Shown here in pieces: positions 30,041-64,000 of a stretch of DNA of 64,000 nucleotides. The notes beneath the pieces are model-generated. The model was given only the letters and a program-made list of their open reading frames with translations, was not told where the DNA came from and made no database searches. How positions within the stretch are numbered: position 1 is the stretch's first letter; each line of letters starts with the position of its first letter. The position numbers and the translations under genes were made by a program. Source of the DNA: an uncultured Gammaproteobacteria bacterium (lineage in GTDB: Bacteria; Pseudomonadota; Gammaproteobacteria; JAUZRS01); assembly GCA_964615985.1 (NCBI GenBank), contig CAZTQX010000001.1:18978-82977 (forward strand), read 5' to 3'.

Positions 30041-31957
30041 ATGGCGTTAAAAAATATGGCTCGACATCAGCAGAGCGGTGGCGGTGAAAGTGGTGGTACG
30101 GATCGGTGGGTGAAATGCAACGCTGAAGATCAGCGTCGCCATGCGCGGACGATGGCCAAACAGCAGCAGGCGGCGGAGCGGATTGCCGCCGCCTCGACGC
30201 AGTTGGCCAGCGGCGTGACACAGGCGGCCAGCGCCCGTGATCAGCTTTCTGTAGCGGTGAATGAAATTTCAGCGGGTGCGGAACAGGCCAGCGGCGCTTG
30301 TGAGCAGAGCCTGTTTTCGATCACTAAAATCACCACGCAAATCAAGCAACAATCTGACTTAGCGGAAACCTCTTCGAGCAAAGCGGTGGCACTGCAAGTC
30401 TTGGTGGATCGTACCTCTGAGGCGATCAGTAACTTGGTGGATAACGTCAAAGTTGCTGCTGATCGTCAAGCGAGTTCGGTCAAAGTGATGGCGGAGGTGG
30501 AGCAGCAGGCGGCCAATATCAATGAATCGGTCAAACAGGTGATGCGGATTGCCGATCAAACCAACCTGCTGGCACTGAATGCCGCCATCGAAGCCGGGCG
30601 CGCTGGCAAACACGGCAAAGGTTTTGCGGTGGTGGCGGATACGGTGCGTACCTTGGCCGAGACCGCTGAAAAAAACGCCCTTGGCATCGCCAAACAGATT
30701 GAGGTGATTCAAGAGTTGGCGCGCAGCGTCGGGGATTCTGTCACCAAAGCGAGTAAAACCGCCTTGGATGAGGTGGAAAAAGGCCAAGTGATTACCCAGC
30801 AGTTGCAGAGTATCAAGGACGATGTTAACGAGGTTTATCAAGGTTCTCAACGGTTGGAGAGCGGTGCTGAAGATATTAACCGTTCGATCTTAGTGGTACA
30901 AAAAGGCGCGGATGTGATTGCCACCGCTGCCCAAGATCAAGCCAGTGCCGCCGAAGAGGTGGTGGCTTCACTGGATCAACAGGAGCAAGCACTGCGTGAA
31001 TCGGAGCAAGCGTCACAAGGGTTAGAGGTACTCTCAGATGAGTTGAAAAACAGTACCGACATCGCCAAAAGCGCCGAGGAGGTGGCGGCCAGCGCCGAAG
31101 AACTCTCTTCGTCCATCGAAGAAATCAATCGTTCAGCGACTCAAATTAGTTCCGCCATTGAGCAGGTCAGTCGCAGTGCCGAGCAGAGTGCCACCGCCAT
31201 TGAGCAAGCGGTCTCTGGGATTGCCGAAGTTGAAAAAGGCGTGGATCTGGCCACCGAAATCAGTGGCTCTGCATTGCAGCGTTGTAAAAACATTCGTGAG
31301 TTATTGAGTGTTAATAAAACCAGCGTTGATGAAATGATCACAGGCATTGGCGATGCGATGGAGTCAGGTCGTGCCAATCTGAAAAACATCGAAGAGGTGG
31401 AGCAGTTGGCGCGTTTGATTGACAAAGTCACCGATGCCATTGCCACCGTCTCGATTAAAACCGGCATGTTGGCGGTCAATGGAGCGGTGGAAGCGGCGCG
31501 AGCCGGTGAATACGGCAAAGGCTTTGCGGTGGTGTCGTCGGATATCCAAAGTTTGGCTGACGATGCGGCAGAAAATGTCGATCAGATTAAAGACCAAGTG
31601 AAAGCCATTCAGGATCAGGCTTCCAAGGTGCGGATTGATTTGACCGAGGTGGCCAACAGTGCCTTGCAAGAGGTTGAACGCACCAAACAGACCACCACCG
31701 ATCTGCTGGCCATCGAAGAGGATATGAGTGTGATTCAGGATGGCAGTGAGCAACTTGGTCAGGTTGCGACTGAAATATCGGCGGCCAGCAACGAGATCAA
31801 ACGCGGCATGGAGCAGATCGCTGCTGCTGCCGAGCAAGCCAGCAGCAATGCCGAAGAAGCATCCATCGCAGCACGACAACAGTCTCAAGGGGCTGAGGAG
31901 TTGGCGGTGGCCACCGAGGAGATCGCCTCCATTGCGGATGAATTGCAGAGTGCGTAA
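30041..31957 (+). CDS. cytoplasmic methyl-accepting chemotaxis protein with two tandem signalling (MA) domains (DosM-like)
   Basis: 638 aa with no TM segment. Two separate receptor-tip motifs are present, [38 protein letters not shown] and [33 protein letters not shown]. Confidence 0.85.
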
Positions 31958-31987: not shown

Positions 31988-33529
31988 ATGACGACGGCAT
32001 TAGCAATTGACAACGATCTGCAACAGCAGCCCGACGAGGATGAAGAGCGTGCAGAGGAGCAGAGTCAATACGTCACCTTTCAAGTGGAGGATGAGGTGTT
32101 TGGTTTCCCGATGGAGTCGGTGCTGGAGATCATCCGTCTGCCCACCACCGTCGAGGTGCCGCTGACCCCCAAAGCACTGCTGGGGCTGGCCAATTTGCGC
32201 GGCAGCGTCTTACCGATTTTGGATCTGCGCCAAGTGCTGCACCTGAACAAAACAACCTACAACGATGCCAGCCGCGTGATCGTCACCGATGTCGGCTCGC
32301 CGGTGGGGCTGGTGGTGGACAAGGTCGCACGGGTGATGCAGGTGGAGCCAGAGTGCATCGACCGCAATGAACAGGTGCAGAACAACATCGGCGCGGAGCT
32401 GCTGGAGGGCGTGATCAAAGGTGGCAGCGGCGAGGCGCTGATTCAACTGCTGAACGTGGAGCAGTTGATCAAAGAGGAGTTCAGCGTGGTGCTGGCGGTG
32501 GCGCAGTCGGAGAGTGCCGAGCGTGAGGTGGGGCTGCTGATGCAGCACGAGGTGGAAGACGACACCGATCAACTGGTCAGTTTTACCCTAGAGGATCAAG
32601 AGTACGCCTTCAACTTATTGGAGGTGGAAGAGATTGTGCGCTTGCCGGAGCAGATCTCCAGTGTGCCGCGCAGCGACGCGCATATTTTGGGCTTGATGGA
32701 CCTGCGTGGGCGATTGCTGCCGTTGGTGAGTCTGCGCTGTCTGCTGGAGTTTGAAGAGGCGCAGAGCATTGACGAAGAGAGCCGTATTTTGGTCGTGAGC
32801 GTGAAAAATGCGCAGGGCAAAAAAGAGTCGGTGGGGCTGGTGGTGGACGATGTGAAGGAGGTTTTGCGGGTGGAAAAAGCGCTGCAAAACACCATGCCGC
32901 CGTTGCTGAACCGCAACGAAGAGAGTGCCGAAATCAGCTCCATCTGTCGTCTGGAAGGGGGTCAACGCTTGGTCTCGGTATTGACTGCTGAATCGCTTTT
33001 CGCGTTGCCCAGCGTGCAGGCGGCGATTCAGACAAAAGAGAGCGAAGCGGAGGCAGAGAGTGAGGTGAACGAGATGAAAGAGGGTGATGACGAAACAGCG
33101 CAACTGGTGGTGTTTTTGTTGGGGCAGCAAGAGTACGGCGTGAGCATTGATGACATTCAGGAGATTACCCGAGTGCCAGAGACGTTGGATAAGGTGCCGA
33201 AAACAGCGGAGTCCATTGAGGGCATGGTCAATCTGCGCGGCACGGTGCTGCCGGTGTTGGACATGCGCAGCCGTTTTGATATGCAGAAGATGGCGCGCAA
33301 CGACCGGCAGCGGATCATTGTGTTTAATCTCAACGGTACGCGCACCGGTTTTATTGTCGATTCGGTGGCGGAGGTGCTGCGTTTACCACGGGATCAGATC
33401 CAAGTGGCACCGCAACTCTCGGACGATCAAGCACGGATTATGGGACGGGTGATCAACCTGAAAAAAGAGCAGCGCATGATTCAAGTGTTGGCGACCGATG
33501 AATTGTTAGCAGAAGAAGTTGATGCGTAG
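31988..33529 (+). CDS. scaffold protein with three tandem CheW domains
   Basis: 513 aa. The CheW-like block (...LGL.NLRG..LPI.DLR...) occurs three times, at roughly residues 30-170, 190-330 and 370-510. Confidence 0.85.
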   Translation: MTTALAIDNDLQQQPDEDEERAEEQSQYVTFQVEDEVFGFPMESVLEIIRLPTTVEVPLTPKALLGLANLRGSVLPILDLRQVLHLNKTTYNDASRVIVTDVGSPVGLVVDKVARVMQVEPECIDRNEQVQNNIGAELLEGVIKGGSGEALIQLLNVEQLIKEEFSVVLAVAQSESAEREVGLLMQHEVEDDTDQLVSFTLEDQEYAFNLLEVEEIVRLPEQISSVPRSDAHILGLMDLRGRLLPLVSLRCLLEFEEAQSIDEESRILVVSVKNAQGKKESVGLVVDDVKEVLRVEKALQNTMPPLLNRNEESAEISSICRLEGGQRLVSVLTAESLFALPSVQAAIQTKESEAEAESEVNEMKEGDDETAQLVVFLLGQQEYGVSIDDIQEITRVPETLDKVPKTAESIEGMVNLRGTVLPVLDMRSRFDMQKMARNDRQRIIVFNLNGTRTGFIVDSVAEVLRLPRDQIQVAPQLSDDQARIMGRVINLKKEQRMIQVLATDELLAEEVDA

Positions 33530-36543: not shown

Positions 36544-39171
36544 ATGGATCCTATATTGGCCTATTTTCTATCGGAATCACGAGAGAATCTGGAGAGTGCA
36601 GGCCGCTGTTTTTTGGAGCTGGAGCAGACTCCTGACGGCAGCGAGTTATTGGATGATCTGTTTCGTGCCATTCACACCATGAAAGGCTCTTCGGGGCTGT
36701 TTGATATTCCGCCGTTTACCAAAACGGTGCATGCCGCTGAGGATCTGTTGGATCAGGTGCGCAGCGGCGAGGTGATCTTGAGCGCGGAACACATCGACTT
36801 GCTGTTGGAGGTGATGGATCAGATCTCACTCTGGTTGGATGAGCTGGAGTCGCAGGGCTGTTTACCCAGCAATGCGCTGGATGCTGGCGAAGGCTTGAGT
36901 GCCGAGTTACGCGCCATCTACCGTTCAGAGTTAGAGCAAGAGTTGCCTGTGGCAGAGGTGACTCCGACTGCGGTTTCTCAAGAGGCCCTTTCAGAAGCGC
37001 CAACATGGTTGCAGCGGGTGGATGACGGCGAGCGTATGGTGCTGTTTGAGATGCTGCAAACACCTGATAAAGAGTTGACGGCGATTGAGTATCGACCCGC
37101 TGCGGGCTGTTTTTTCAGTGGCGATGATCCGTTACACGTCATGCGTAATCTGCCCGATCTCTGCTGGTTGGCGGTGACTTCTGAGAATGAGTGGCCTGTA
37201 GCAGAAGAGAGGGATCTTTATCAGTGTAATCTGCGTTTTTACGCTCTGAGCTGGGCGAGCAAAACGGAGTTGCAGCACTGTTTTCGTTATCAGATTGAGC
37301 GGGTGACGTTGACATCGTTACAGTCTTCGCAGTTGGTGTTTGCTGAGGGTGTTTGGGGTGACGAGGAGCCGTTTGAGCTGTTTTTACAGCAGGTTCCTGA
37401 ATGGGTGGTGGGGCAAGATTGGTCGCGGTTGGCGGTCTTGATTAAGCCGCTGCTGGAGCTGAGCGGCGCTGAGTTACAGCAGACCTCGGTGCTGCGTTGG
37501 CTGCGCCTGTTGTTGCAGCACGACTGCCAAGATGCAGAATTGTTCCGCTCTCTGTTGGAGGTGATGACCGAGGGCATCTTGCTCTGGCCAGAGCAAGATG
37601 AGGCGGTTGCTGTGGCGGTTTCGACAGAGCAGCGCCAAGCGGCACAGCAGGCGTTGCAGACACAGCGGCAGATTTTGAGTATGCCTTGTGGCGAGGGTGC
37701 GATGCAGGGACGCATCGCCTCGGTCTCGATGGTGATGAGCAACATGATGCAGTTGCTGGGAATGTCGGTGGAGCCGTTGTTGGCGGCACGAGATGCCGCA
37801 AGGCAGAGCGATTGTTTAGATCCGCTGTTGCAGTTTTTGCACGGGTTGGATTTTGTTGCGGTGGCCGAGCCAGTTGCAGAATCTAAGCCACGGCAGTCCG
37901 CTTTGGCACCCTTGTCGCTGTTGCCGCCTGCGGTTGAGCGGCGTAAGTCAGAGCGACGGCTGGACAGTCGTCGTCAAGAGCTTGAAATCCCAGCGATAAA
38001 GACCCTGAAGGTGGATCAACAGCGCATCGACAGTCTGATGGATCTGGTGGGTGAGCTGGTGGTGGCGAAAAATGCGCTGCCTTTTTTGGCTAAACGCGCC
38101 GAAGAGCATTTTGGTGTGCGCCAACTGGCCAAGGAGATCAAAAGTCAATACACAGTGATCAATCGCCTTTCGGAAGAGCTGCAAGGGGCGATGATGCAGA
38201 TCCGTATGGTGCCGATCTCCACCGTTTTTCAGCGTTTTCCGCGTTTGGTGCGGGATCTGTCGCGCAAGCTGGATAAACAGGTGGAGCTGAAATTGGAGGG
38301 TGAGGAGACCGAAGCGGATAAAAACGTGGTGGAAAACTTGGCCGATCCGCTGATTCACTTGGTGAGAAACAGCTTGGATCACGGTTTGGAGAGTGTTGAA
38401 GAGCGCCTCAAGGCGGGTAAACCGGCCAACGGCACCATTACTCTACGCGCCATTGGTCAGGATGATCAGGTGGTGATTGAGATTTGCGATGATGGTCGTG
38501 GCATCGATCCTGGAAAAATCAAACACAAAGCCTATCAAAAGGGTCTGTTGGATGAGCAGCGGCTTGACAGCATCAGCGATCATGAGGCATTGCAGTTTAT
38601 TTTTGCCGCTGGTCTTACCACTGCTGAGACGGTTTCTGATCTGTCGGGGCGCGGGGTGGGGATGGATGTGGTGCGCTCGGTGATTCAGGCGGCGGGTGGC
38701 ACGGTGGAGGTGAGCAGCGAATTGGGGCAAGGCAGCACGGTGCGTTTAAGCCTGCCGCTGTCGATGGCGGTCAGTCGCGTGATGATGATTGAGGTGGCGG
38801 AGCAGAGTTACGGCATTTCCATGGAAAACATCATTGAGACGGTACGCATTCCTCGTGCGGCGGTGCAGCGCATCAAGCAGAGCGAGGCGTTGGTGCTGCG
38901 TGAACGCTTGATTCCGCTGTTTTCCTTGCGGATGTTGCTGGGGCTAGCGCCGATGCAGCAGCAGCCAGAAGAGATTGCGGTGTTGGTGATGATGTTGGGC
39001 AAGGAGGAGGTGGCGTTGGTGATTGATGAGTTTCACGAAGGGATTGATATTATTCAAAAACCGTTGGAGGGGGTAATGGCCAATTATCCGTTCTATTCGG
39101 GCGCGACCTTGCTGGGGGATGGGCGGGTGTTGTTGGTGTTGAATACTCCGGAGTTGTTGGCATGTCGATAA
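36544..39171 (+). CDS. cheA: chemotaxis histidine kinase CheA (Hpt, dimerisation, HATPase, CheW-like)
   Basis: 875 aa with Hpt AIHTMKGSSGLFDI, the G-boxes DDGRGID and GRGVGMDVV, and a C-terminal CheW-like domain. A long ~450 aa insert lies between Hpt and the dimerisation domain. Confidence 0.92.
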   Translation: MDPILAYFLSESRENLESAGRCFLELEQTPDGSELLDDLFRAIHTMKGSSGLFDIPPFTKTVHAAEDLLDQVRSGEVILSAEHIDLLLEVMDQISLWLDELESQGCLPSNALDAGEGLSAELRAIYRSELEQELPVAEVTPTAVSQEALSEAPTWLQRVDDGERMVLFEMLQTPDKELTAIEYRPAAGCFFSGDDPLHVMRNLPDLCWLAVTSENEWPVAEERDLYQCNLRFYALSWASKTELQHCFRYQIERVTLTSLQSSQLVFAEGVWGDEEPFELFLQQVPEWVVGQDWSRLAVLIKPLLELSGAELQQTSVLRWLRLLLQHDCQDAELFRSLLEVMTEGILLWPEQDEAVAVAVSTEQRQAAQQALQTQRQILSMPCGEGAMQGRIASVSMVMSNMMQLLGMSVEPLLAARDAARQSDCLDPLLQFLHGLDFVAVAEPVAESKPRQSALAPLSLLPPAVERRKSERRLDSRRQELEIPAIKTLKVDQQRIDSLMDLVGELVVAKNALPFLAKRAEEHFGVRQLAKEIKSQYTVINRLSEELQGAMMQIRMVPISTVFQRFPRLVRDLSRKLDKQVELKLEGEETEADKNVVENLADPLIHLVRNSLDHGLESVEERLKAGKPANGTITLRAIGQDDQVVIEICDDGRGIDPGKIKHKAYQKGLLDEQRLDSISDHEALQFIFAAGLTTAETVSDLSGRGVGMDVVRSVIQAAGGTVEVSSELGQGSTVRLSLPLSMAVSRVMMIEVAEQSYGISMENIIETVRIPRAAVQRIKQSEALVLRERLIPLFSLRMLLGLAPMQQQPEEIAVLVMMLGKEEVALVIDEFHEGIDIIQKPLEGVMANYPFYSGATLLGDGRVLLVLNTPELLACR

Positions 39172-45888: not shown

Positions 45889-47613
45889 CTACAAATCGGA
45901 GCTGTTCAGGTGGTAAATACCCTGTTCCTGTTGCCAATCCTGTTGATGGTATTGGTAGGCTTGCATTGTGCCAAGGCGATTGACCTTGATGCTGTCGATG
46001 CCGTGAAAGAAGTCGCGGCCAAATTCAAAGGCGGCCAAAAGGTTGCTGGGCGTACTCCAACCATCGTCGATGGGTAGCTCTCGGAGCTGCTGAATGCGTT
46101 GTTTTGGGGAGCTGCCTTCACGGGTGGCAATGCTCCAGCCCCACTCTCCAAAAGAGGGGACGTTGTGATGATACTGCTGAACATGCTTGAAACCGGCCTG
46201 CTTGAGGGTTTTGCCGATGCTCAAAAAGGTGCGCCGAGCATGGTAGGGCGAGGTGGATTGCACCACCAGCGCACCGTCTCCTGCCAGCAGCAGTTTCAGT
46301 TTGGCGTAGAAACGACTGGAGTAGAGTTTGTTCAGATCGGGGTGGCTGGGGTCGGGCAGATCGACGATGATGCTGTCAAAATAGCGCTGCTGGGCGATCA
46401 ACTCATCGACGCCGAGAAAGGCATCACCAAACTGAGGCTGCACGCGAGGATCGGCAAAAGCGTGTTGGTTCAGCTCCAGCAATCGTTGATTGACCGTTTC
46501 TCCTTGAATATTTAAGGGTTCGGCAAACAGCCGTACCAGAGCGGGATCCAGATCCAATAGCAGTACTTCTTGTGGGTTCCAGCGCAGCACGTCACGCAGT
46601 GCCAAACCATCACCGCCGCCAATAATTAGAATCTTGTCATGTCGAGCGGATGCCGCCAGCGCCGGTGCGGTGAGCAGGGCGTGGTAGAGGTGTTCGTCGT
46701 TGCTGGCAAACTGGGTACGGCCATTGATGTAAAAGGTCAGCACAGAAGGTTGTTCGGCGCTGATGAGCCGTTCGGTGACGGTGAGGCGTTGGTAATGGGT
46801 ATTGAGTCGATAGACCACTTTGTCTTGATAGAGCAGGTCTTCCATCTGGGCATCCCAATCGCTGCCAAAAAGGGCGATGCTCAGCACCAGCAGAGCGGTG
46901 ATGCCGTGTGCCAGTAGCAGTGGAATACGGGAGGCGATGCGCTGTCGAAACAGCAGCAGAAACAGCAGTCCCATGATTAAGTTGGCGCTGGCGGTCAGGG
47001 CGGCGGCGTACGAGACTTCCAGAGTGAGCATAAAACCGACCCAAAGCGCTGCGCCAATGCCCGCACCAAGATAATCCATGCCGTAGATGGAGCCGGTGTT
47101 GTGGGTCAGGTGCTGGCTGTAGAGGGCTTGGCGCACGCGCGCCATCAAGGGGATCTCCATGCCGATCAAAAAACCCAGCAGAGCGGCCATGAGATAGGGG
47201 CTGATGGCGGCGACCTGTTCGACTTGCTGTAGAAAGCCGCCGTTGGGCAGCAGATCCGGTGGTAGGGCAAAGGTCTCCATCAAGACTTGTGGCAGTCGAG
47301 TGCTGAAGGCGAACAGCAGAGCGATGAGCAAGACCGCCGAGGAGCCGAGCAGTGCCACCACCAGCTCCAGCCAAGCAAAACCGCTGAAGGGGTTTTTGAC
47401 CAGCCGCGCAGCGAATGCACCCAGACCCATCGAGACGATCATGATGCCGATAATGGTGTAGATGACACTTTCCATGCTGCCCAGCACTCGCCCAGCGTAG
47501 TGGGAGAGTAGGTATTCGTAAATCAAGCCACAGCCTGCCAACACCATCATAATGGAGAAGATGGCTAGATCGTAGAGCAGCAGAGAGCGGGGTTTGGTTT
47601 CGGCGGTGGTCAA
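45889..47613 (-). CDS. membrane-anchored spermidine synthase-like aminopropyltransferase
   Basis: 574 aa with ~8 N-terminal TM helices and a C-terminal SpeE fold (ILIIGGGDGLALRDVLRW, LLLDLDP). Confidence 0.75.
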   Translation of the reverse strand: MTTAETKPRSLLLYDLAIFSIMMVLAGCGLIYEYLLSHYAGRVLGSMESVIYTIIGIMIVSMGLGAFAARLVKNPFSGFAWLELVVALLGSSAVLLIALLFAFSTRLPQVLMETFALPPDLLPNGGFLQQVEQVAAISPYLMAALLGFLIGMEIPLMARVRQALYSQHLTHNTGSIYGMDYLGAGIGAALWVGFMLTLEVSYAAALTASANLIMGLLFLLLFRQRIASRIPLLLAHGITALLVLSIALFGSDWDAQMEDLLYQDKVVYRLNTHYQRLTVTERLISAEQPSVLTFYINGRTQFASNDEHLYHALLTAPALAASARHDKILIIGGGDGLALRDVLRWNPQEVLLLDLDPALVRLFAEPLNIQGETVNQRLLELNQHAFADPRVQPQFGDAFLGVDELIAQQRYFDSIIVDLPDPSHPDLNKLYSSRFYAKLKLLLAGDGALVVQSTSPYHARRTFLSIGKTLKQAGFKHVQQYHHNVPSFGEWGWSIATREGSSPKQRIQQLRELPIDDGWSTPSNLLAAFEFGRDFFHGIDSIKVNRLGTMQAYQYHQQDWQQEQGIYHLNSSDL

Positions 47614-49991: not shown

Positions 49992-50503
49992 GCTTTTGGC
50001 TCTTGTTGGCAAATTTTGATCACCAGCTGACGAACGCAGCCTAAATATTTCTGTTCGTCGGCGGCCTGCTGGTAGCGTTGCGCTTGCCAGAGTGATTCTG
50101 CTAGGCATTCCAGCAGTTGATGTTCCACCTCGTGACCGTCTTTGAGTGTGACCAGCAGTTGGCGGGTCAAGGTGGCGATGCCTGCAGGTCGATTGGTGCT
50201 GAGTTGTTCGCGTAGGGCGATGTGCAGCCCCATGTGCAAAAAGGGATTACTCTCGCCACTTTCGGGCAGATACTCCTTTTCCAGTTGTTGCAGTTGCTGG
50301 TGGTATTCAGGATGTTCGGCAATCACTCCAGCGATGATCTCTTCCATCGGCTCTAAGGGCTGTTTTTGCTGGTATTTTTGCCACGCTTGCAGGTAGGTGT
50401 TGCGCAGCGAGTGACGATCTTTGCTAAAAAACATAACGGAATTCTTGCTGGGTTGTGAAGTGGGGTGGGTGGGTTTAGTCAAGGCGTTTTTGGTCAAATT
50501 CAC
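49988..50503 (-). CDS. DUF1841-family protein
   Basis: 171 aa. I recall DUF1841 genes lying downstream of nth in Pseudomonas-type genomes. Confidence 0.5.
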   Translation of the reverse strand: MNLTKNALTKPTHPTSQPSKNSVMFFSKDRHSLRNTYLQAWQKYQQKQPLEPMEEIIAGVIAEHPEYHQQLQQLEKEYLPESGESNPFLHMGLHIALREQLSTNRPAGIATLTRQLLVTLKDGHEVEHQLLECLAESLWQAQRYQQAADEQKYLGCVRQLVIKICQQEPKA

Positions 50504-51110
50504 ACAGATCTTCCACTAGGCAGGCTCCGCAACGGGGTTTGCGTGCCACGCAGGTGTAACGTCCATGCAGAATCAGCCAATGGTGCGCGTCTTGTTTGAA
50601 CTCCGTTGGCACCCAACGCATCAGTTTTTCTTCCACTTCGACGACGTTTTTTCCTGGAGCCAGTTTCATGCGGTTGGAGACCCGAAAGATGTGGGTGTCC
50701 ACAGCGATGGTAGGAATACCAAAGGCGGTGTTGCGTACCACGTTGGCGGTTTTTCGCCCGACTCCTGGTAGCGCTTCCAGCTCTTTTTGCCCTTGGGGGA
50801 CTTCGCCTTGGTGCTGTTCCAGCAGTAATTTGCAGGTTTTGATGATGTTACTGGCTTTGCCGTTGTAGAGGCCGATGGTTTTGATGTAGCTCTTTAACTG
50901 CTCTTCGCCCAGCTCAAAAATCTGCTGGGGGGTGTTGGCGATGGGATAAAGTTTGGCGGTGGCTTTGTTGACCCCGATGTCGGTGGCTTGGGCGCTGAGA
51001 ATGACCGAAATCAGCAGCTCAAAGGGGCTTTGGTAGTTCAGCTCGGTTTTGGGGCTGGGATTGGCCTTTCGTAGGCGGCTGAAAATTTGATGGCGTTTGA
51101 CGGCGTTCAC
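50475..51110 (-). CDS. nth: endonuclease III (DNA glycosylase/AP lyase)
   Basis: 211 aa with HhH-GPD ([12 protein letters not shown]) and a C-terminal 4Fe-4S cluster [17 protein letters not shown]. Confidence 0.93.
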
Positions 51111-55643: not shown

Positions 55644-56225
55644 TTATACCTTGATCAGGCCTGAAAAGCCCATAAAGGCCAATGACATCAGACCGGCGGT
55701 GATCAGGGCGATGGCGTTGCCTTTGAAGGGCTTTGGCACATCGGCCACATCGACCCGTTCACGTACCGCCGCGAACAGCACCAGCACCATTGAAAAGCCG
55801 ATGGCGGCACCAAAACCATAGAGGGCGGATTCGATAAAGGTGTGATCTTCTTGAATGTTGAGCAGTGCTACTCCCAATACCGCGCAGTTGGTGGTGATCA
55901 AGGGCAGAAAAATACCCAAAATATTGTAGAGCATGGGGCTGGTTTTATGCACCACCATCTCGGTGAACTGCACCACTACAGCAATAATAAGAATAAAGGT
56001 GATGGTGCGCAGGAACTCTAACTCGAAGGGAATCAGTAGGTATTGATTGGCCAAATAGCTGCATACCGAGGAGAGGGTGAGTACGAAGGTGGTAGCGAAA
56101 CCCATTCCTAGGGCGGTCTCTAGTTTACGGGAGACGCCCATAAAAGGGCAGAGGCCGAGAAACTTCACCAAGACGAAGTTGTTGACCAAAATGGTGCTGA
56201 TGAGAATTAGCGCGTATTCGCTCAT
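55644..56225 (-). CDS. rnfA: Rnf complex subunit A
   Basis: 193 aa polytopic protein ([32 protein letters not shown]). Confidence 0.92.
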
Positions 56226-56469
56226 GGTCTTTCAGATGTTCCGTTGCTCGGCGTACGTCGGCTGGGGAGTTTAACAAATTCTTATCTTCTTTGCGGCCAG
56301 AATTGATTTTATTGCTTGGCTGGGCAGCAGAGCGCATGGCAATGAAAATTTGGATAAGGTGACGTTTTAGCCCTTAAAAAGTGAGTTTGTTCGCTTTAAA
56401 CTGGGAAAATGAGTTCAGGCATGGTAGAAAGCGGGAGCATTTTTCATTTGTAACGAGAACGGTTGAGCG

Positions 56470-59400
56470 ATGAACGACAATAAAATCACCACGCCCAGTA
56501 AATTTGAACGTCCCGCCGTTGAGTCTCAGCGCTTTTTGTTTCGCCCGCGTTTGATTGAGCGTTTGACAAAACGCGCCACCCATCGTCAGGTGGCGGTGTT
56601 TGAAGGCCAGGCAGGACAAGGTAAGTCGGTACTGGTTTCACAGTATTTGGAGCATTTAGACAGTGCTTATGCGTGGTGTCGACTGGATGAGAACGATGCT
56701 GATCTCGCCAGTTTATTGCTCTCGTTGGTGAAAGCGTGCCATACCGGTTTGCTGGGGTTTTCTTGCCCGGTGTTGGAGTCGACGACGGTTGATTTGACGA
56801 ACGAAACGGTGTTATTGGCAGCGTTTCAACAGGCATTGAACGTCTGCGTCAAATTAAACCATAAGTCGCAAAAAAGCGTTCATATTGTTCTGGATGGTTT
56901 GCACGTGCTGGAAGAGAGTCCTGAGGCTCTGGCTCTGTTGCAACGTTTGATTGAAATGACACCGATGGATGTCACCTTTTTAATCACTTCCCGTACTCCG
57001 GTTGCCATTTTGTTGAGTGACATTCACACCACGCAGTCGTGGTGCATCATCGATAACGCTCAATTGGCTTTCAGTCGTGATGAAGTGATTTCACTGTTGG
57101 CACAGCTCTCCAGAGGGGCGTCACAAAGTCGAGCTGCGGAACTGTTTCGCCGTTCTTTGGGCTGGCCGGTGGGTTTGAGCTGCCTGTTTCCCGAGTCAAA
57201 ATCAGCCGTCAGTATGGCTTCTTTGAGCGACTATTTTCAGCGTGAGCTATTGGAGGGTCTTCCCAGTGATGTGCGCGATTTTCTGATGCGGGTGGCACTG
57301 TTGGAGTCGATCTCATTGCCTCTGGTTTTGACAGTCAGTGGTCGTGAGGATGCGGCGGCACTGCTGCAACAGATGGTGGAGCAGCACGGCTTTATCTATC
57401 AACGACTCGGGCAGGCGGTGTTTGAGATGCACCCTTTGTTGCGTTCGGTGCTGCGGCGGCAAGTGAGCGCCTATTTAGGGAATGATAACCTTAAAGAAAT
57501 TTTGCAACGGGTGATGGAACATCTGATCTCTCAGAAACAGCCGCGTCAGGCGGTGGTTTATGCTTTGAGAGCGGGGGACCTGCGCAGCGTGGATCAGCTG
57601 TTGCGTTTGATGGGGGCGACTCTGCTGGAGATTGTTTGCCATATTGAGCCAAAAGATGTATTGCAGCTGTTGGCTCGCAAACAGTCGAACTCAGCTTGGT
57701 TGCTGTTATTGCAAGCGACCGCAGCGATGGAGTGTGATCCTGCGGCGGCGCGTGAGCCATTGCATCTTGCCCTAAATAAATTGAAAGCGGAGGGAGATCA
57801 GCAGGGAGAGCTGTTGGCGCTGTCACTCTCGATCTTGTTTCATACCTTGGTCAGTGGCCAAGTTGAAGAGGTACAAAATCTTTATCAGCGCGCCGTACGG
57901 CTGTATGACGAATTGCAGAGTGGTTTGAATCACTACGCCAAGGCTTATATCAGTGCCTGTTTGGGAGCGGCTCAATTGGTCGTGCACGACAATGCTGAGC
58001 TGGGGCGTAATTCGCTGGAGTATGCGTTGCGATTGGCCAGTGAACACCGTTTTGAACGCTTGGCGCTGCGCATTCGTTTGATGCGCCTGTTTGACCTTAT
58101 CTCCTCCGGCCAGCTGTTGGAAGCCAAGGGTGATATGGAGGCGCTGCACGGTGTGATTGGTGAGTCTTGGTGTGATGCCTTGGAACAAGGTTATATCTAT
58201 GCTGCGATGGCTTATTGGTTTTATCGCTCTGGTGAACTGCAAGAGTTAAAACGTCATTTGCGCCTCTCCAAACTCTATCTGCCACGTTCCATTTTAGAGC
58301 AGAATTTAGCCGGTGCCCTGCTGCTTGTGTGGGAGATGCAAGCGGCCTTGGCCGAGGGCGATTTTTTAACCGCCAAACACCTTTTGCAGCAAAGTTTAAG
58401 TCTGCCTGCTTGTGGTCGGCATTTGGCAATAAGTCAATATTTACGACCTTATCATCCTCTGTTAGATCTGTTGCTGGATCAATTTAGCGCGCCACATAAA
58501 AAAGCTTTGGCGCAATTGGCGTTGGTGGCTAAAGGCGATATGCACAGTTTGCATGCGTTGTTGGTTTTGGGTGCGGCTTATTTGCAGTTGGGTGATCACC
58601 ATGAGGCGAAAGTCTTTTTGGATGAGGCTTATAAACGGGCTGGTTTGCGCAAAGATTATTTTACTCTGTCGGCGGTGTTATTGCATCGAGCGAGCCTGTT
58701 CCATGCGCTGGGAGAAGAGGAGCAAGCCAAAGAGGATACTCAAGAATTTGTTACCGTAATGCCACAACACAACGGTCGTTATTGCGACATGTGGTTGCCT
58801 GATGTGGCGATGCAGTTCTATTTGACTGGGATAAAAAATGGCGTTGAGTCGCGTTTTTTACGTCAGTTGGCGGTGCAGTGTCTGGATGTGAGTGTGGACG
58901 ATAAGGGGCAAGTTTTACCCATGGTGCATGTGCAAAGTTTGGGTGACATTGCTTTCAAATTGTCGGGTGAATCTTGTTTGCAACAGAGTGATTTAACCCC
59001 CGCACAACGTTCTTTGTTGTCGTTGCTGATCACCGCTTCTGACCTTTGTCTAGATCAAGCGTCGGTGCAGTTGATGTTGTGGCCAGACAGCCCGCAAGAG
59101 AAGGCGAGGGCCAATTTTGATGCTTTGTTATCTCGGGTCAGAAGTACGCTGAATAAAGCCTTGAAACCTTGGAAGGCAAAATCCTATTTTGTCCTAAAAC
59201 GGGGTGTGCTCTGCCTGAGTAATTGTGAGGTTGATCTGCACCATTTTCGCAGCCAAAGCGAAGAGGGGTTGCGTCTCTACAAGGAGGGTAAACATTGGGA
59301 GGCGGGTTTCTGTCTGCGCAAGGCGGTTAATTATTGGCAAGGACCGCTCTGTCCCGAAGAGAAAAGTTTGTCGGTCATTGATGATCTGCGTGAGCAGCTT

Positions 59401-59688
59401 AACGAGCAGCATGCACAGTGCAGTCGTGCTTTGGCGCAACTGGTCGAACGGGAAGGGGAATATCAGGAGGCGGTTGATTTGCTGAAGTTCTTTTTCCAGC
59501 AAGAGCCAAGTGATGAGAGTTTGGTGCGTCGACTCTACAGTCTCTACAAACAGCTGGGGCAGCGTGACCAAGCTGCCTTGGTTTTGACCACCTATCATAA
59601 TGCCTTGATCGACGCGGGTACCTCGTTGGAAGACACCATTGCGATGGTGGTAAAAACGTATAACGGTACGAAGCCGTTTACTTTTTAA
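56470..59688 (+). CDS. large MalT-like STAND NTPase with a C-terminal SARP-type output (OmpR winged helix plus BTAD)
   Basis: 1072 aa. The N-terminus TTPSKFERPAV...VAVFEGQAGQGKSVLVSQYL...YAWCRLDENDADLASLL aligns with the MalT N-terminal ATPase. The middle is a helical/TPR-like region. The C-terminus has a trans_reg_C-like LMLWPDSPQEKARANFDALLSRVRSTLNK followed by a BTAD-like block (GLRLYKEGKHWEA...AVNYWQGPLC...). Confidence 0.8.
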   Translation: MNDNKITTPSKFERPAVESQRFLFRPRLIERLTKRATHRQVAVFEGQAGQGKSVLVSQYLEHLDSAYAWCRLDENDADLASLLLSLVKACHTGLLGFSCPVLESTTVDLTNETVLLAAFQQALNVCVKLNHKSQKSVHIVLDGLHVLEESPEALALLQRLIEMTPMDVTFLITSRTPVAILLSDIHTTQSWCIIDNAQLAFSRDEVISLLAQLSRGASQSRAAELFRRSLGWPVGLSCLFPESKSAVSMASLSDYFQRELLEGLPSDVRDFLMRVALLESISLPLVLTVSGREDAAALLQQMVEQHGFIYQRLGQAVFEMHPLLRSVLRRQVSAYLGNDNLKEILQRVMEHLISQKQPRQAVVYALRAGDLRSVDQLLRLMGATLLEIVCHIEPKDVLQLLARKQSNSAWLLLLQATAAMECDPAAAREPLHLALNKLKAEGDQQGELLALSLSILFHTLVSGQVEEVQNLYQRAVRLYDELQSGLNHYAKAYISACLGAAQLVVHDNAELGRNSLEYALRLASEHRFERLALRIRLMRLFDLISSGQLLEAKGDMEALHGVIGESWCDALEQGYIYAAMAYWFYRSGELQELKRHLRLSKLYLPRSILEQNLAGALLLVWEMQAALAEGDFLTAKHLLQQSLSLPACGRHLAISQYLRPYHPLLDLLLDQFSAPHKKALAQLALVAKGDMHSLHALLVLGAAYLQLGDHHEAKVFLDEAYKRAGLRKDYFTLSAVLLHRASLFHALGEEEQAKEDTQEFVTVMPQHNGRYCDMWLPDVAMQFYLTGIKNGVESRFLRQLAVQCLDVSVDDKGQVLPMVHVQSLGDIAFKLSGESCLQQSDLTPAQRSLLSLLITASDLCLDQASVQLMLWPDSPQEKARANFDALLSRVRSTLNKALKPWKAKSYFVLKRGVLCLSNCEVDLHHFRSQSEEGLRLYKEGKHWEAGFCLRKAVNYWQGPLCPEEKSLSVIDDLREQLNEQHAQCSRALAQLVEREGEYQEAVDLLKFFFQQEPSDESLVRRLYSLYKQLGQRDQAALVLTTYHNALIDAGTSLEDTIAMVVKTYNGTKPFTF

Positions 59689-59712
59689 ATCAACTTCACC
59701 GATGGCCGCTGT

Positions 59713-62700
59713 TTATGGCTCGGCATTGAGCAGCTGCTGTTTCAGGCTGGTGTAGAGTTCGACCACAATCTCATTGGCCTCTTTGCTCTCCATGCCTTCT
59801 TCGATTAAGGAGCTGCGGTACATGCGTAGAATCTTAATACTTTTTTCCCGTTGATCGATTTTTCGGTGCAGCAGATAGAGAGTACTGACCAGATTTTCAT
59901 CGCTGGGATCGGCACGGAACGGTTCCGTTAGCAGCTGTATTGCCTCGTGTGGGCGATTGGCAGCGGCGGCAATGTTGGCCAGTGTTTTACAGCATTGCAC
60001 ATATTGACTGCCGAGGTGATCCCGCAAGTCACGGACAGAGTAGGCCAGATCGACACCGGTACAGAACTCTCCCTGCCATTTTTCCAGAGCGGTGTAAAGT
60101 GACAGGCTGGCTTCCCAGGCCTTACCACTTTTGAACAGACGCAGCCCCTTTTGTCCCTCTTGGGCAAACAGCAGCAAATCCGCTTGGCAATTAATCAAAT
60201 AGAGTTCGCCCCTCTTGAGTAATATGTAGGATTTTGCTGAATGTGGCGTGAGGGATTTGTTAAAGGTGCTACGCAGGCGTGATAACAGAGCATCGAAGGT
60301 GGCACGGGCTTTTTCCAACGGGCTGTTGGGCCACAGCGCTTGTTGAATGTCCGCTTGATTCATGTGCAGCTCGGGGGTGGTCAACAGCAGGGCGATGAGC
60401 GCGCGTTGCGCAGGAGTGAGATCCGCTTGCGAGAGACGTGTTTCGGTGTGTACCAAGAAATCCAGACGACCGAGGCTTTCGATGTGCAGTACCGGTATGG
60501 AGTTGCCCTTGGGGTCGATGCCGATGTCGAGTCGTGTATTGGCGATCTCTCGCATGTATTCGGCATCGATATTTTGGGTGACAGCATAGCGAAACACCTC
60601 TTCGCTGATGCGCGGCAACCAGAGATCAAAATGAGGGTATTGAACCTGTTTCATTAAGGAGACGAAGTGATTGATGTCAGCGGCAGCGGTGGCGGTCTCT
60701 TGGCGTTGAATTTGGACAAAAACACGGTGCAGCAAGGCTCCGGCAATGGCCTGTTGGTTGCCGTAAATTTTACCCCAATGGATCGCCTGATCGAGATGGC
60801 GCTTAGCCTCTCCCCAATTGGTGAGCATCATGTAGATGGTGCCGATCAAGGTGTGATCGTGGATCGCCAAGGGGCCTTCGCTGGTAATGCGCTGCTCCAA
60901 TTCGTTTAGGATTTGGGCTGCCTGAGTGGATTCACCGCTCATCGCTTCCAACAGACCTTGATAGAGCATCAGGCGATTGTGCAGTGGCCGATGGTCGTTG
61001 ATGTAGGCCATGCTGCGGGTACGTCGAACCAGACTGCGAGCTTGGGCGTAGTGACCTTCGGCGATGGACATCTGTACTTGCAGAACTTGGATCACCGAAG
61101 CGAGCAGTGTTTGATTCAGTAGTTTTTCGTCGAGCAGTTCTTTTTTCTGGGTTAGATGACGTTTCAGGGCGCTAAAATTGGCTGTTTTATAGAGCCAATA
61201 ACTGAAGACGGTAAAGGTCAGGCAGCGTTCCAATTGGTTTAATTGGTTTTGATGCAGTGCTTGATGCAGTACTTCCAGATCCTCTTTGGCCGCATTGAGC
61301 TGGCCGGTGAGGACGCGATGAAAGGCTTGCAACAAACGAATATGAATCATCAAGTCGCGGTATTTTGCCTGTTCGGCAATGCGCAGGGTATCGTTTAGCG
61401 CGCGCGGGCCTTGCTGTTGATGCACAAATAGGCTGGCGGCACTGAGCGAGCTGTTGATGTAGATGGTCGAGTAGGGGTCAATCTGCTGATGCAGGCTTTG
61501 ATAGAGAGGCTCTGCTTCACTGAGCAGGGCCGCACAGCATTCATGCCGACCGTCGATCAGAGCGTGAAAGAGCAACTCTTGGGTGATCAGCAGCAGCAAG
61601 CCTTTTTGATCACCTGTGTCGTTGAACAGCGCTCTGGCGCGTTCAAAGTGTGCACTGGCTTCAAGAGGAGCTATTTCCATCTGGATGGCGGCCAGCAGCA
61701 GCGATAACCAGCCTGAATTGTCACTGATCTTTTTTGGTAAGAGTTGTTGTAACTCTTCTAGGTCAGTGCTGTGCTGAGGTATTTTCAGCAGACGCGCGTT
61801 CATCTGTTGCAGCAAACTTTCGGTGTGTTCGTAATCACCGGCTTTGAGAAAATAGTAGACCGCTTTATGGGTCTGATCTTGTTCCTGAAAGTGGTTGCCA
61901 ATGCGGCGCAGATATTGGTTGAGGGCTTCTTTGCTGAGTTGCTTTTGCGACTCTTCGCGCAAATGGGTTCGCAGCAAGGGGTGTAATGCGTAATGTGTAC
62001 GTGACAGGCGGTAGAGAAAACCGTGGCGTTCGAGCAGTTGCCACAACAATTTTTGTGTGTCTTCTCGTTGGGTTACCGCACTGGCCAAGGGTGTGCTGAT
62101 CTCTTCCAATAGGGCAATTTGGGCGAGGAAACTGCGCTGTTCGGGAGGCAGTTTTTCCAGCAGTTCGTATTTGAAGTAGGAGCCAATGTCACTGAGTAAC
62201 AGCGCACTTTTGGCATCGGTAATAATGCCGCTGGGGGAGGGCAGAGTGTCATCTTGATTGTGCCCCATAGAGATCAGCCCGACCGGCCAACCTTGGGTGT
62301 TTTTATACAGCTCTTGGTAGGCTTCCTCGGTGAGAGTATTGCCAAAGACTTCACTGGAGAGGCGGTGCATCTCGTCGTGATTGAAGGCCAAACGCTGATT
62401 GCCGAGGGTGAGCCACTCTTGTGGGGAGCTGCGTTTGCCCAACAACAAGGTGACCGGCAGACGAGAGATTAGGATGAATTTGAGCTGTTTGGGCGCTTGA
62501 TCCAATAACATCTGGATGATTTTAATGGATTTTTTATGCCCTTCCAGCAGTTGGAAGTTATCCAGAATCAGGTAACGTTCATTGCCGATGTAGCGTTCCA
62601 GGGTGGAAACTAGGCTGTTGACCGCAGTCTCTAGTTTATCATCGGTGGTTTCGCCCCACTCGACCAGGCGTTCTAAAAAAGGTGATTCAAAATCTGAGAA

Positions 62701-62994
62701 ATTGTGGTAACAGAGCGACAGCAGGCCAGCCAACAGGTGGATGGGCTGGTTGTCGTTTTCATCTAGCTGATACCAGAGGTTAGGGCATTGATATTCGCGT
62801 AAAAACTGCGAAACCAGCGTGGTTTTGCCTTGTCCGGCCTGACCTTCGATGGCAAAAATACGTCGATTGGCACCACCATCGTGCAGATACTCCATTACAC
62901 GAGGACGTTTTAGGGTGCGAACGACGGCAGCAGCAGAGGGAGCTAACTTTTGAGTCGAGATTTGATAGTCGTGGACTTGAATGGATTTATCCAT
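59713..62994 (-). CDS. paralogous MalT-like STAND NTPase with a SARP-type (wHTH plus BTAD) C-terminus
   Basis: 1093 aa with the same architecture: IFAIEGQAGQGKTTLVSQFL...LWYQLDENDNQ, then LTPAQRALIALLLTT...ALWPNSPLEKARATFDALLSRLRSTFNK...GLRLFKSGKAWEA...ALEKWQGEFC. Convergent with the previous gene, with stops 24 bp apart. Confidence 0.8.
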   Translation of the reverse strand: MDKSIQVHDYQISTQKLAPSAAAVVRTLKRPRVMEYLHDGGANRRIFAIEGQAGQGKTTLVSQFLREYQCPNLWYQLDENDNQPIHLLAGLLSLCYHNFSDFESPFLERLVEWGETTDDKLETAVNSLVSTLERYIGNERYLILDNFQLLEGHKKSIKIIQMLLDQAPKQLKFILISRLPVTLLLGKRSSPQEWLTLGNQRLAFNHDEMHRLSSEVFGNTLTEEAYQELYKNTQGWPVGLISMGHNQDDTLPSPSGIITDAKSALLLSDIGSYFKYELLEKLPPEQRSFLAQIALLEEISTPLASAVTQREDTQKLLWQLLERHGFLYRLSRTHYALHPLLRTHLREESQKQLSKEALNQYLRRIGNHFQEQDQTHKAVYYFLKAGDYEHTESLLQQMNARLLKIPQHSTDLEELQQLLPKKISDNSGWLSLLLAAIQMEIAPLEASAHFERARALFNDTGDQKGLLLLITQELLFHALIDGRHECCAALLSEAEPLYQSLHQQIDPYSTIYINSSLSAASLFVHQQQGPRALNDTLRIAEQAKYRDLMIHIRLLQAFHRVLTGQLNAAKEDLEVLHQALHQNQLNQLERCLTFTVFSYWLYKTANFSALKRHLTQKKELLDEKLLNQTLLASVIQVLQVQMSIAEGHYAQARSLVRRTRSMAYINDHRPLHNRLMLYQGLLEAMSGESTQAAQILNELEQRITSEGPLAIHDHTLIGTIYMMLTNWGEAKRHLDQAIHWGKIYGNQQAIAGALLHRVFVQIQRQETATAAADINHFVSLMKQVQYPHFDLWLPRISEEVFRYAVTQNIDAEYMREIANTRLDIGIDPKGNSIPVLHIESLGRLDFLVHTETRLSQADLTPAQRALIALLLTTPELHMNQADIQQALWPNSPLEKARATFDALLSRLRSTFNKSLTPHSAKSYILLKRGELYLINCQADLLLFAQEGQKGLRLFKSGKAWEASLSLYTALEKWQGEFCTGVDLAYSVRDLRDHLGSQYVQCCKTLANIAAAANRPHEAIQLLTEPFRADPSDENLVSTLYLLHRKIDQREKSIKILRMYRSSLIEEGMESKEANEIVVELYTSLKQQLLNAEP

Positions 62995-63149
62995 AAATGG
63001 GGTAATCAGGGCAGTTGTGGTTGGTGGTCGGATGTTTTTTTGATTTTATTCTGACGCTGGAGCAAAGATAGCAGATATAGGCTTTGGATTGCAGGTTTTA
63101 TCGAAAAAAGCTCTGTCCACACTCATGTTTTTGAGTGCGGAAAGAGTCT

Positions 63150-64000
63150 TTATTTAACCTTCATGCCCGCTTTTGCACCACTGTCTGGCTGTAAAATAAA
63201 CAGCTCGTCGCCACCAGAACCGGCGGCCAAAACCATGCCTTCGGAGAGACCGAAACGCATTTTACGCGGTGCTAAATTGGCGACCATGACGGTCAAACGT
63301 CCTTCTAAATCTTCCGGCTTGTAAGCGGACTTGATTCCAGCAAAGACATTTTTGCTGACTCCATCCAGATTCAGGGTCAGTTGCAGCAGTTTGTCTGCGC
63401 CTTTGACGTGCTCGGCTTTATCGATGCGGGCGATGCGCAGATCCAGTTTGGCAAAATCCTCAAAGCTGATCTCTGGCGCGAGTGGTTCTTTGTCCAGTTC
63501 GGTTTCGATTTTTTTGGGTTGACTGGCCTGTGTCAGGGCGTGTTCTTGAGCCAATTCGGTTTGCGTCTGTTCTAACATGGCTGCGACTTTCTCTTTGTCG
63601 ATGCGGGTCATCAAGGGTTTAAATTTATTGATCTGATGATTCAGCAGCGGGGTACTGAGATCTGTCCAGTTGAGCGGCTCGATATTGAGGAAGGTTTCGG
63701 CTTTTGCTGCCAATATCGGCAGCACCGGCTTGAGATAACCGATCAGGACTCGGAACAGATTGATGCCCATGCTACAGACGTCGTGTACTTGTTGGTCGAG
63801 AGTCTCGTTTTTGGCCATGATCCACGGTTTTTTCTCGTCGATGTACTGATTGGCTCGATCTGCCAGCGCCATGATGTCGCGCATCGCCTTGCCAAATTCA
63901 CGTCGTTCGTAAAGTTCGGCCAGTTTAGGAGCTGCGGCGTTAAAGTCGGCCAGCAGCTCAGGGTTGTTGATACGGTCGCAGAGCTGGTTTTGGTGGCGTT
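63150..64000 (-). CDS. metG: methionyl-tRNA synthetase, C-terminal part (anticodon-binding plus EMAP/tRNA-binding domain); the 5' end lies beyond the window
   Basis: C-terminal ...[28 protein letters not shown]...[25 protein letters not shown]... is the Myf/EMAPII-like tRNA-binding domain of MetRS. The ORF stays open to the window edge. Confidence 0.85.

Follow-up and report, generated by a model that had tools for sequence, protein, structure and literature searches.

Domain architecture of the convergent gene pair

The window analyzed here, a stretch of 64,000 nucleotides from an uncultured gammaproteobacterium (contig CAZTQX010000001.1 of assembly GCA_964615985.1), harbors two convergent genes, A and B, next to the rnf operon (Table 1). 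Each of them encodes a MalT-clade STAND NTPase of ~390 amino acids (aa), continued by a helical sensor of ~430 aa and a C-terminal SARP module, which consists of an OmpR-type winged helix and a BTAD domain and makes up the last ~260 residues of each protein. An earlier inspection of the same DNA, in the following called the sequence-only reading, had reported both open reading frames (ORFs) with their coordinates, the tail-to-tail layout with 24 bp between the stop codons (59689-59712) and the adjacency to rnf, all of which was borne out by the six-frame ORF list. The motifs quoted at that time were all found in the proteins as well (GQAGQGK[ST].LVSQ[YF]L, W..LDEND, LTPAQR.L..LL, LWP.SP.EKARA.FDALLSR.RST.NK and GLRL[YF]K.GK.WEA ... 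WQG). A BLASTP comparison of A with B gave 35% identity and 55% positives over the full length (E = 0), which identifies them as true paralogues. The similarity differs between the domains. It is highest in the winged helix of the SARP module (56% identity), intermediate in the nucleotide-binding oligomerization domain (NOD, 35.5%) and BTAD (35%), and lowest in the sensor (30.5%).

The N-terminal NOD comprises a P-loop nucleotide-binding domain, a helical domain and a winged-helix domain. Its assignment to the MalT type, which had been proposed before, is supported by matches of both proteins to the NCBIfam MalT model (E values in Table 1), by a sequence profile and by protein structure. A family profile was constructed from A, B and seven full-length relatives. 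Among the PDB sequences it aligned with MalT (8bob) at profile positions 12-427 (E 1.1e-44). An AlphaFold2 model, as had been suggested in the sequence-only reading, was calculated for B from an alignment of 39 sequences. The model is confident, with a mean predicted local distance difference test (pLDDT) of 86.9 and a predicted template modelling score of 0.74. It shows an alpha/beta P-loop domain, ~20 stacked helices at residues 388-822, a strand-helix winged-helix unit at residues 824-938 and a helical bundle that extends to the C-terminus. A Foldseek comparison of this model with the PDB yielded MalT (8bob_C, E 6.4e-15) as well as an archaeal STAND protein and the SARP of AfsR, which are treated below. 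The equivalog model of NCBIfam covers only the first ~400 aa, and the scores of 138.4 bits (A) and 150.3 bits (B) did not reach its cut-off of 537. The P-loop model NPHP3_N exceeded the Pfam cut-off in both proteins and WHD_MalT (PF25873) was present among the precomputed hits, while the Pfam model NB-ARC was found only on the P-loop of B with an E value of 0.02.

Residues invariant or nearly invariant across the family are those of Walker A (GxxxxGK[ST]), Asp145 of Walker B (numbering of B), Arg178, the motif GW..G and His338. Walker A reads GQAGQGKS in A and GQAGQGKT in B and is followed by W..LDENDA/N. His338 belongs to the winged-helix domain of the NOD, where it is part of an LHP motif in B and an MHP motif in A, and aligns with the histidine of the MalT motif YHPLF. 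The Walker B motif is IVLDG in A (56880-56900) and LILDN in B (62550-62570). Thus the second acidic residue is missing in both, whereas MalT and most of the relatives contain DD at this position; DN also occurs in the distant relatives P0012, P0046, P0052 and P0075. By analogy with MalT, the loss of this residue in both A and B suggests that they may bind ATP with slow or no hydrolysis and would act as slow-resetting switches. Where the helical domain of the NOD passes into its winged-helix domain, B also carries ~14 residues that A lacks (residues 246-265), a region in which the pLDDT of the model falls below 50.

The region between NOD and SARP module had been described as a helical, TPR-like sensor of ~600 aa. 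Its helical nature was confirmed, but its length was overestimated, as the region spans ~430 aa (roughly residues 390-825). In A it showed weak tetratricopeptide repeat (TPR) matches, e.g. to the Pfam model TPR_8 at residues 695-723, and in B it was modelled as helix pairs. With the model of B, Foldseek retrieved the archaeal STAND-TPR protein 6mfv (E 1e-10) and further TPR superhelices. The Pfam model TPR_MalT (PF17874) was not matched by A or B, but is found in more distant relatives of the same architecture.

The C-terminal region harbors a winged helix and a BTAD domain in place of the LuxR-type helix-turn-helix (HTH) of MalT, as stated in the sequence-only reading. The Pfam analysis of the C-termini confirmed this for BTAD, which directly follows the winged helix and reached 50.6 bits in A and 46.2 bits in B (gathering score 22.1), but not for the winged helix itself, as Trans_reg_C stayed below its cut-off in both proteins. 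The NCBIfam AfsR model matched residues 859-1041 of B (E 1.8e-7). Positions 844-1071 of the family profile aligned with residues 12-237 of EmbR (2fez), covering winged helix and BTAD (E 3e-10), and three AfsR entries of the PDB sequences were matched with E values of 3e-7 to 3e-6. At the structural level, Foldseek superimposed the model on the SARP chains of AfsR (8hvr_I and 8k60_I) with target-normalised template modelling (TM) scores of 0.71-0.73 and root mean square deviations of 4.5-4.8 Å over ~260 columns, and EmbR was matched with an E value of 5e-6. Based on the profile and the superposition, an OmpR/PhoB-type winged helix is present in both proteins despite the low Trans_reg_C scores. 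Neither A nor B matched the Pfam model of the LuxR/GerE HTH (PF00196) at E <= 1.

The residues Gln48, Trp74, Arg92 and Arg94 of AfsR touch DNA in the cryo-EM structure of AfsR with RNA polymerase and promoter (PMC10936776). They align with Gln863, Trp888, Arg906 and Arg908 of B, which are invariant in the family. The recognition helices of the two paralogues are almost identical, with ARATFDALLSRLRST in B and ARANFDALLSRVRST in A. In all described SARP classes (small, medium, AfsR-like large and SARP-LAL) the SARP is located at the N-terminus (PMC10936776; bioRxiv 10.64898/2026.09.02.748808). The domain order of A and B, with the module at the C-terminus, is therefore reversed with respect to every characterised SARP class, in agreement with the sequence-only reading.

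Table 1. Genes, protein domains and non-coding elements of the A/B locus (positions within the window).
Feature	Position	Strand	Remarks
Conserved block proximal to rnfA, candidate rnf promoter/leader	56265..56300	-	87-93% identical to L005; flanks 33-57%
Conserved block upstream of A, candidate promoter/operator/5' untranslated region	56358..56452	+	83-97% identical to L005 in 30-nt windows
Gene A	56470..59688	+	1072 aa; MalT-type NOD, helical sensor and C-terminal SARP module; six-frame ORF list
A, NOD (P-loop nucleotide-binding, helical and winged-helix domains)	56494..57633	+	residues ~9-388; NCBIfam MalT E 2.4e-40
A, all-helical repeat (TPR-like) arm and sensor	57634..58914	+	residues ~389-815; weak TPR matches; aligns with helical region of B
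A, OmpR-type winged helix	58915..59214	+	residues ~816-915; Trans_reg_C 839-897; covered by EmbR/AfsR profile alignment
A, BTAD	59215..59685	+	residues ~916-1072; Pfam BTAD 921-1047
Hairpin at 3' end of A, AACGGTACGAAGCCGTT	59662..59678	both	17 nt in last codons of A; pattern match from consensus scan
Gene B	59713..62994	-	1093 aa; paralogue of A with the same architecture; six-frame ORF list
B, BTAD	59716..60189	-	residues ~936-1093; Pfam BTAD 939-1071
B, OmpR-type winged helix	60190..60504	-	residues ~831-935; Trans_reg_C 857-930; strand-helix pattern of model
B, helical repeat arm and sensor	60505..61764	-	residues ~411-830; ~20 consecutive helices in model
B, NOD, MalT-type	61765..62922	-	residues ~25-410; NCBIfam MalT matches 25-435, E 6e-44
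Conserved block upstream of B	63035..63113	-	93-97% identical to L005; downstream of the hairpin after metG
Terminator-like hairpin after metG	63111-63146	-	inverted repeat; T run follows on minus strand

Distribution of the family and selection on the pair

A tblastn scan of one genome per species yielded at least 158 stretches coding for relatives of the pair, and full-length relatives are present in at least 158 species. The best 80 of these at least 158 matched residues ~10-1085 with 24-29% identity and all belong to the Desulfobacterota (former Deltaproteobacteria), including Desulfobulbaceae, Desulfocapsaceae, Desulfopila, Desulforhopalus, Desulfofustis, Desulfuromonadales and Desulfoluna limicola. 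Geothermobacter hydrogeniphilus HR-1 and two metagenome-assembled genomes (MAGs) harbor two copies each at separate loci. In an uncultured Desulfocapsaceae MAG (L042, CAZMFP010000057.1, 474-10695) three full-length members of 1095, 1090 and 1099 aa are arranged in direct tandem on one strand, which demonstrates that arrays of paralogues recur outside the lineage of the window.

An exhaustive hidden Markov model (HMM) search of 1.84 billion representatives of clusters formed at 50% identity recovered more than 150 clusters. The 150th-best representative still had an E value of 7e-135, and among the matches listed most are 1045-1110 aa long and were aligned end-to-end (~10-1088). At E <= 1e-30 the search returned 11,780 proteins, NOD-only matches included. 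A word-index search with B gave 120 matches, 38 of which carry both WHD_MalT and BTAD. C-terminal Trans_reg_C and BTAD domains were also found by Pfam in Georgenia satyanarayanai (residues 813-884 and 893-1022), Geodermatophilus ruber and one Anaerolineae MAG; the order STAND-then-SARP is thus represented in Actinomycetota and Chloroflexota as well. Two relatives from metagenomes show additional domains: P0041 (1305 aa) has an adenylate/guanylate cyclase domain appended after BTAD, and P0126 (1015 aa) carries a response-regulator receiver domain at its N-terminal front.

The family has also received names in databases. Proteins 91-93% identical to A and B, located in the same clusters at 90% identity (MDQ7015706.1/07.1 and MDQ7074819.1/18.1), are called 'BTAD domain-containing putative transcriptional regulator' by the PGAP annotation of NCBI, and the corresponding JGI label is 'ATP/maltotriose-dependent transcriptional regulator MalT / DNA-binding SARP family transcriptional activator'. 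Within the Gammaproteobacteria, the next relatives of A outside this 91-93% identical lineage share only 27% and 25% identity, and judged from these comparisons the family looks rare in this class. The literature search turned up no publication that describes a MalT-type NOD with a SARP at its C-terminal side or a BTAD protein from Desulfobacterota, and no characterised member of the family was found. The proposal of an undescribed family in the sequence-only reading therefore needs to be divided: the family is indeed uncharacterised, but it is neither rare nor unseen, as it occurs in at least 158 species, in more than 150 clusters and in further phyla and has been named by NCBI and JGI. The order of an N-terminal STAND and a C-terminal SARP, for which a survey of the distribution had been advised, turned out to be widespread and largely a common, already auto-annotated arrangement. 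Thus, the family is an uncharacterised but abundant and auto-annotated arrangement of STAND transcription factors, and the pair in the window is a gammaproteobacterial branch of it that has diverged and been duplicated.

Orthologues of both genes, in the same layout and with the same neighbors, are present in the 'Gammaproteobacteria bacterium' MAG GCA_030950195.1 (L005), with proteins 91-93% identical to those of the window. In comparison with this MAG, dN/dS (Nei-Gojobori) is 0.041 for A and 0.039 for B at a dS of ~1.0-1.3, and similarly low values (~0.04) were obtained for each region analyzed, i.e. NOD, sensor and SARP module. A and B are under strong purifying selection, and both genes are therefore functional. 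A neighbor-joining tree placed A with P0121 and B with P0001 in two sister clades within the large family. This indicates that the duplication is specific for this lineage and older than the split of the two MAG lineages. The A/B branch is known from only these two closely related lineages.

Neighboring genes and non-coding DNA

Upstream of A and divergent to it lies rnfA (55644..56225, minus strand), followed by rnfB, rnfC, rnfD, rnfG, rnfE and nth. Upstream of B, the same strand carries the C-terminal part of metG (63150..63884, minus strand). The window as a whole represents core chromosome, with murC, secA, pilB, pilS/pilR, a chemosensory cluster and rnf. In other gammaproteobacteria metG may likewise be found near rnf-nth, in which case the pair would be an insertion at this spot.

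The neighborhoods of the best 80 of the at least 158 related loci were analyzed by ORF calling, clustering with BLASTP and annotation of representatives. A SpoU-family methyltransferase gene is located directly upstream on the same strand in 41 of the 80 loci, with a median gap of -9 nt, and a convergent gene for an HhH-GPD (endonuclease III-like) glycosylase follows downstream in 40. Other recurring neighbors are phosphofructokinase (36 loci), RelA/SpoT (36), Leu/Phe-tRNA protein transferase (Aat, 34) and ClpB (29). About half of these loci thus share a conserved housekeeping synteny, and they are not islands. Defence or biosynthetic genes were not found among the recurring neighbors of the 80 loci. 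HhH-GPD is the only neighbor family common to both contexts, as nth (50475-51110) ends the rnf operon ~5 kb away from the pair; this overlap is probably a coincidence.

In the 244-bp spacer between rnfA and A (56226-56469) two sharply conserved blocks were identified by comparison with L005, and a third block is located upstream of B (Table 1). At the four-fold degenerate sites of A and B, the identity with L005 amounts to only 50-59%. The three non-coding blocks, with 87-97% identity, are more conserved than these sites and are therefore strong candidates for promoters or operators. The hairpin at the 3' end of A scored as terminator-like on both strands in the consensus scan and could possibly serve both convergent genes.

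Direct and inverted repeats in the rnfA-A and metG-B spacers did not exceed shuffled controls. A 'GTGA..TTT' repeat at 56359 and 56381, which had been spotted by eye, was rejected as not significant. A scan for the sigma-70 consensus detected no promoter-like site in either spacer, with a regional count below that of shuffled sequences, and sigma-54 -24/-12 elements were not seen there by eye. Rfam (gathering thresholds) and ARAGORN returned nothing in the whole window.

Two further genes of the window were noted for the domains of their products. A 513-aa protein (31988-33529, plus strand) contains three separate CheW-domain stretches (E 5e-90) and follows a gene for a methyl-accepting chemotaxis protein (30041-31957). 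On its other side lie further chemosensory genes, one of which (36544-39171) encodes a CheA of 875 aa that contains Hpt and CheW domains. Scaffolds with three CheW domains are uncommon. The other protein (574 aa, 45889-47613, minus strand) shows a spermidine/spermine synthase domain only at residues 307-500, and no Pfam model matches the long stretch N-terminal to it at E <= 1e-5.

Function of the pair and relation to known systems

A and B are likely to be transcription activators gated by a ligand and ATP, which were duplicated within this lineage and are kept under strong purifying selection. The signal-integrating transcription switch favored in the sequence-only reading is also the best explanation here, based on the domain architecture and the retained switch and DNA-contact residues. 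In AfsR, the isolated SARP activates transcription, NOD and TPR inhibit this activity and ATP binding lifts the inhibition (PMC10936776). MalT, according to work cited in the same paper, requires binding but not hydrolysis of ATP. By analogy with these two proteins, sensor and arm of A and B would keep the NOD closed and the SARP inactive at rest. Binding of a ligand or partner to the sensor would then promote ATP binding and self-association of the NOD, by which two or more SARP modules would come to lie next to each other at a target promoter, on direct repeats that are in phase and close to the -35 region. The winged helix would read the DNA and BTAD would contact RNA polymerase (sigma region 4, beta flap and the C-terminal domain of alpha), which would turn transcription on. 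The recognition helices are nearly the same and the sensor is the region least alike, which fits a shared DNA specificity with diverged input. Each protein thus probably passes on a signal of its own to promoters that are identical or overlap, whether it acts independently or in mixed oligomers. First candidates for targets are the divergent rnf operon and the promoters of A and B themselves.

Several points weigh against this interpretation. That the proteins activate and do not repress, their oligomeric state and the ligand are adopted by analogy, and the effect of the altered Walker B motif on hydrolysis is presumed from MalT Walker B mutants. With 13.9 bits in A (E 0.059) and 23.2 bits in B (E 7e-5), Trans_reg_C missed its cut-off of 26.2 bits. 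SARPs bind direct repeats that are spaced 11 or 22 bp apart and overlap the -35 region. The search of the rnfA-A and metG-B spacers revealed no target site of this kind, as repeats phased by 10-12 or 21-23 bp were no commoner there than in shuffled sequences. Contacts between SARPs and RNA polymerase have been mapped on the actinobacterial HrdB holoenzyme, not on one with a proteobacterial sigma-70. The link to rnf consists of adjacency only and is absent in the relatives from Desulfobacterota.

One alternative is an obligate heteromeric pair, in which one paralogue senses and the other acts as a helper or decoy, with both co-assembling on one promoter like plant paired NLRs instead of acting as two independent regulators. 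The near-identical recognition helices, the higher conservation of the winged helix (56%) compared to the sensor (30%), the convergent layout with a very short gap that was kept in both lineages, and the absence of the second acidic Walker B residue in both proteins, although in different ways, are consistent with such a pair. However, most of the Desulfobacterota relatives among the best 80 are single-copy at their locus, which indicates that the family works without a partner. Furthermore, both paralogues retain every switch and DNA-contact residue, so that neither looks degenerate, and each gene has a conserved upstream block of its own, so that the two are not co-transcribed. An obligate pair is thus considered rather unlikely.

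A and B might instead be dedicated local regulators of the adjacent operon for the Rnf/Rsx ion-translocating ferredoxin:NAD+ oxidoreductase, responding to redox or energy state. Divergent pairs of regulator and target are common, and A is divergent from rnfA across a 244-bp spacer with two conserved blocks. However, phased repeats are not detectable in this spacer, the relatives in Desulfobacterota do not adjoin rnf and the neighbors of the pair in the window are housekeeping genes. We regard dedication to rnf as no more probable than obligate pairing. Somewhat less probable still is a broader proposal, according to which A and B would be the gammaproteobacterial tip of a large unstudied class of STAND transcription factors, with a MalT-type ATP switch that drives a C-terminal SARP. 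In this lineage A and B would assemble together on promoters common to both, for instance those of rnf or of other genes for energy conservation, and integrate two signals in the manner of paired NLRs. If the proposal were true, SARP-style 'sigma adaptation' would work outside Actinobacteria on the proteobacterial sigma-70 polymerase.

The sequence-only reading had also considered an immune sensor, i.e. an anti-phage STAND similar to Avs or bacterial NLR-like proteins that uses the DNA-binding module as effector. The tripartite STAND plan with long helical sensors would fit such a role, Avs4 (8dgf) was among the distant Foldseek matches (E 2e-5), and arrays of paralogues, as in the window and in the triple tandem of the Desulfocapsaceae MAG, are a trait of defence genes too. 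However, PADLOC applied to the pair gave only noise, with a best E value of 0.0016 on a 40-residue P-loop stretch, and Pfam detected no killing effector (nuclease, protease, TIR, Sir2 or other) in A or B. The pair is located between metG and rnfABCDGE-nth, and its relatives lie in housekeeping synteny. No full-length relatives were detected by tblastn in 72,556 plasmids and 50,697 phage records, where the matches were confined to the NOD level and covered <=40% of the query. Finally, a dN/dS of ~0.04 even in the sensor is unlike that of a sensor engaged in an arms race. The immune-sensor explanation is thus unsupported by PADLOC, by the neighborhoods of the 80 loci and by the plasmid and phage searches, and is very improbable. 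That A and B are ordinary MalT/LAL-type regulators with a misread C-terminus, as could be assumed from their clearly MalT-like N-terminal 400 aa and from the JGI label 'LuxR family ... maltose regulon positive regulatory protein' of several relatives, is refuted by the Pfam, profile-versus-PDB and Foldseek results, namely the lack of PF00196 at E <= 1 together with a significant BTAD, MalT equivalog scores of 138-150 bits against a cut-off of 537, and the match to the SARPs of EmbR and AfsR by profile and structure.

For the window itself the significance of an activator pair is modest, as it adds two well-conserved regulators and no novel type of system. In bacteria, MalT, GutR, AfsR and other STAND transcription factors serve as tractable models of NLR-type switches, and SARPs are the principal activators of gene clusters for antibiotics. 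The family pairs the MalT switch with a SARP output in an order opposite to that of AfsR. It thereby bears on whether recruitment of RNA polymerase by SARPs works with the proteobacterial holoenzyme and on whether STAND autoinhibition depends on where the output domain is placed. The family is conserved in Desulfobulbales and Desulfuromonadales, where it often keeps the same housekeeping neighbors, and this points to an unrecognised regulator of broad importance in bacteria that cycle sulfur and metals.

With MalT of Escherichia coli and other LAL proteins, A and B share the NOD clade and the order of NOD, helical sensor and C-terminal DNA-binding domain, and probably also the logic by which inducer and ATP lead to oligomerisation and promoter activation. 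In contrast to the LuxR/GerE HTH of MalT, their output is formed by an OmpR-type winged helix and BTAD. Their sensor falls short of the TPR_MalT model, their score is far below the equivalog cut-off and their Walker B motif is DN or DG instead of DD. AfsR of Streptomyces coelicolor and other large SARPs resemble them in combining a SARP output with a STAND NOD and a helical-repeat sensor, and the SARP modules are homologous by sequence (E 3e-7) and structure (TM 0.71-0.73) with conserved DNA-contact residues. However, in AfsR the SARP is N-terminal and an NB-ARC NOD lies between SARP and TPRs, whereas in A and B the SARP is C-terminal and the NOD belongs to the MalT clade. A and B are also gammaproteobacterial and show no link to a biosynthetic gene cluster or a Ser/Thr kinase. 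EmbR of Mycobacterium tuberculosis is the best match among solved structures for the whole C-terminal module, but differs in its N-terminal SARP, the lack of NOD and sensor and its control by phosphorylation via an FHA domain.

A and B belong to neither the MalT nor the AfsR family, as the lack of a LuxR HTH and the missed equivalog cut-off place them outside the former, and the MalT-type NOD and the reverse order outside the latter. Their closest counterpart is the database family of ~1,090-aa proteins found mainly in Desulfobulbales and Desulfuromonadales, to which they are homologous end-to-end with the same domain order and the invariant motifs E.QAGQGK, GW..G, LWP and AR..FD.LL.RLR, and with which their branch is placed in the tree. 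Within this family the pair is distinguished by its convergent duplication, its altered Walker B motif and its position between metG and rnf, in contrast to the SpoU methylase and HhH-GPD context of the relatives.

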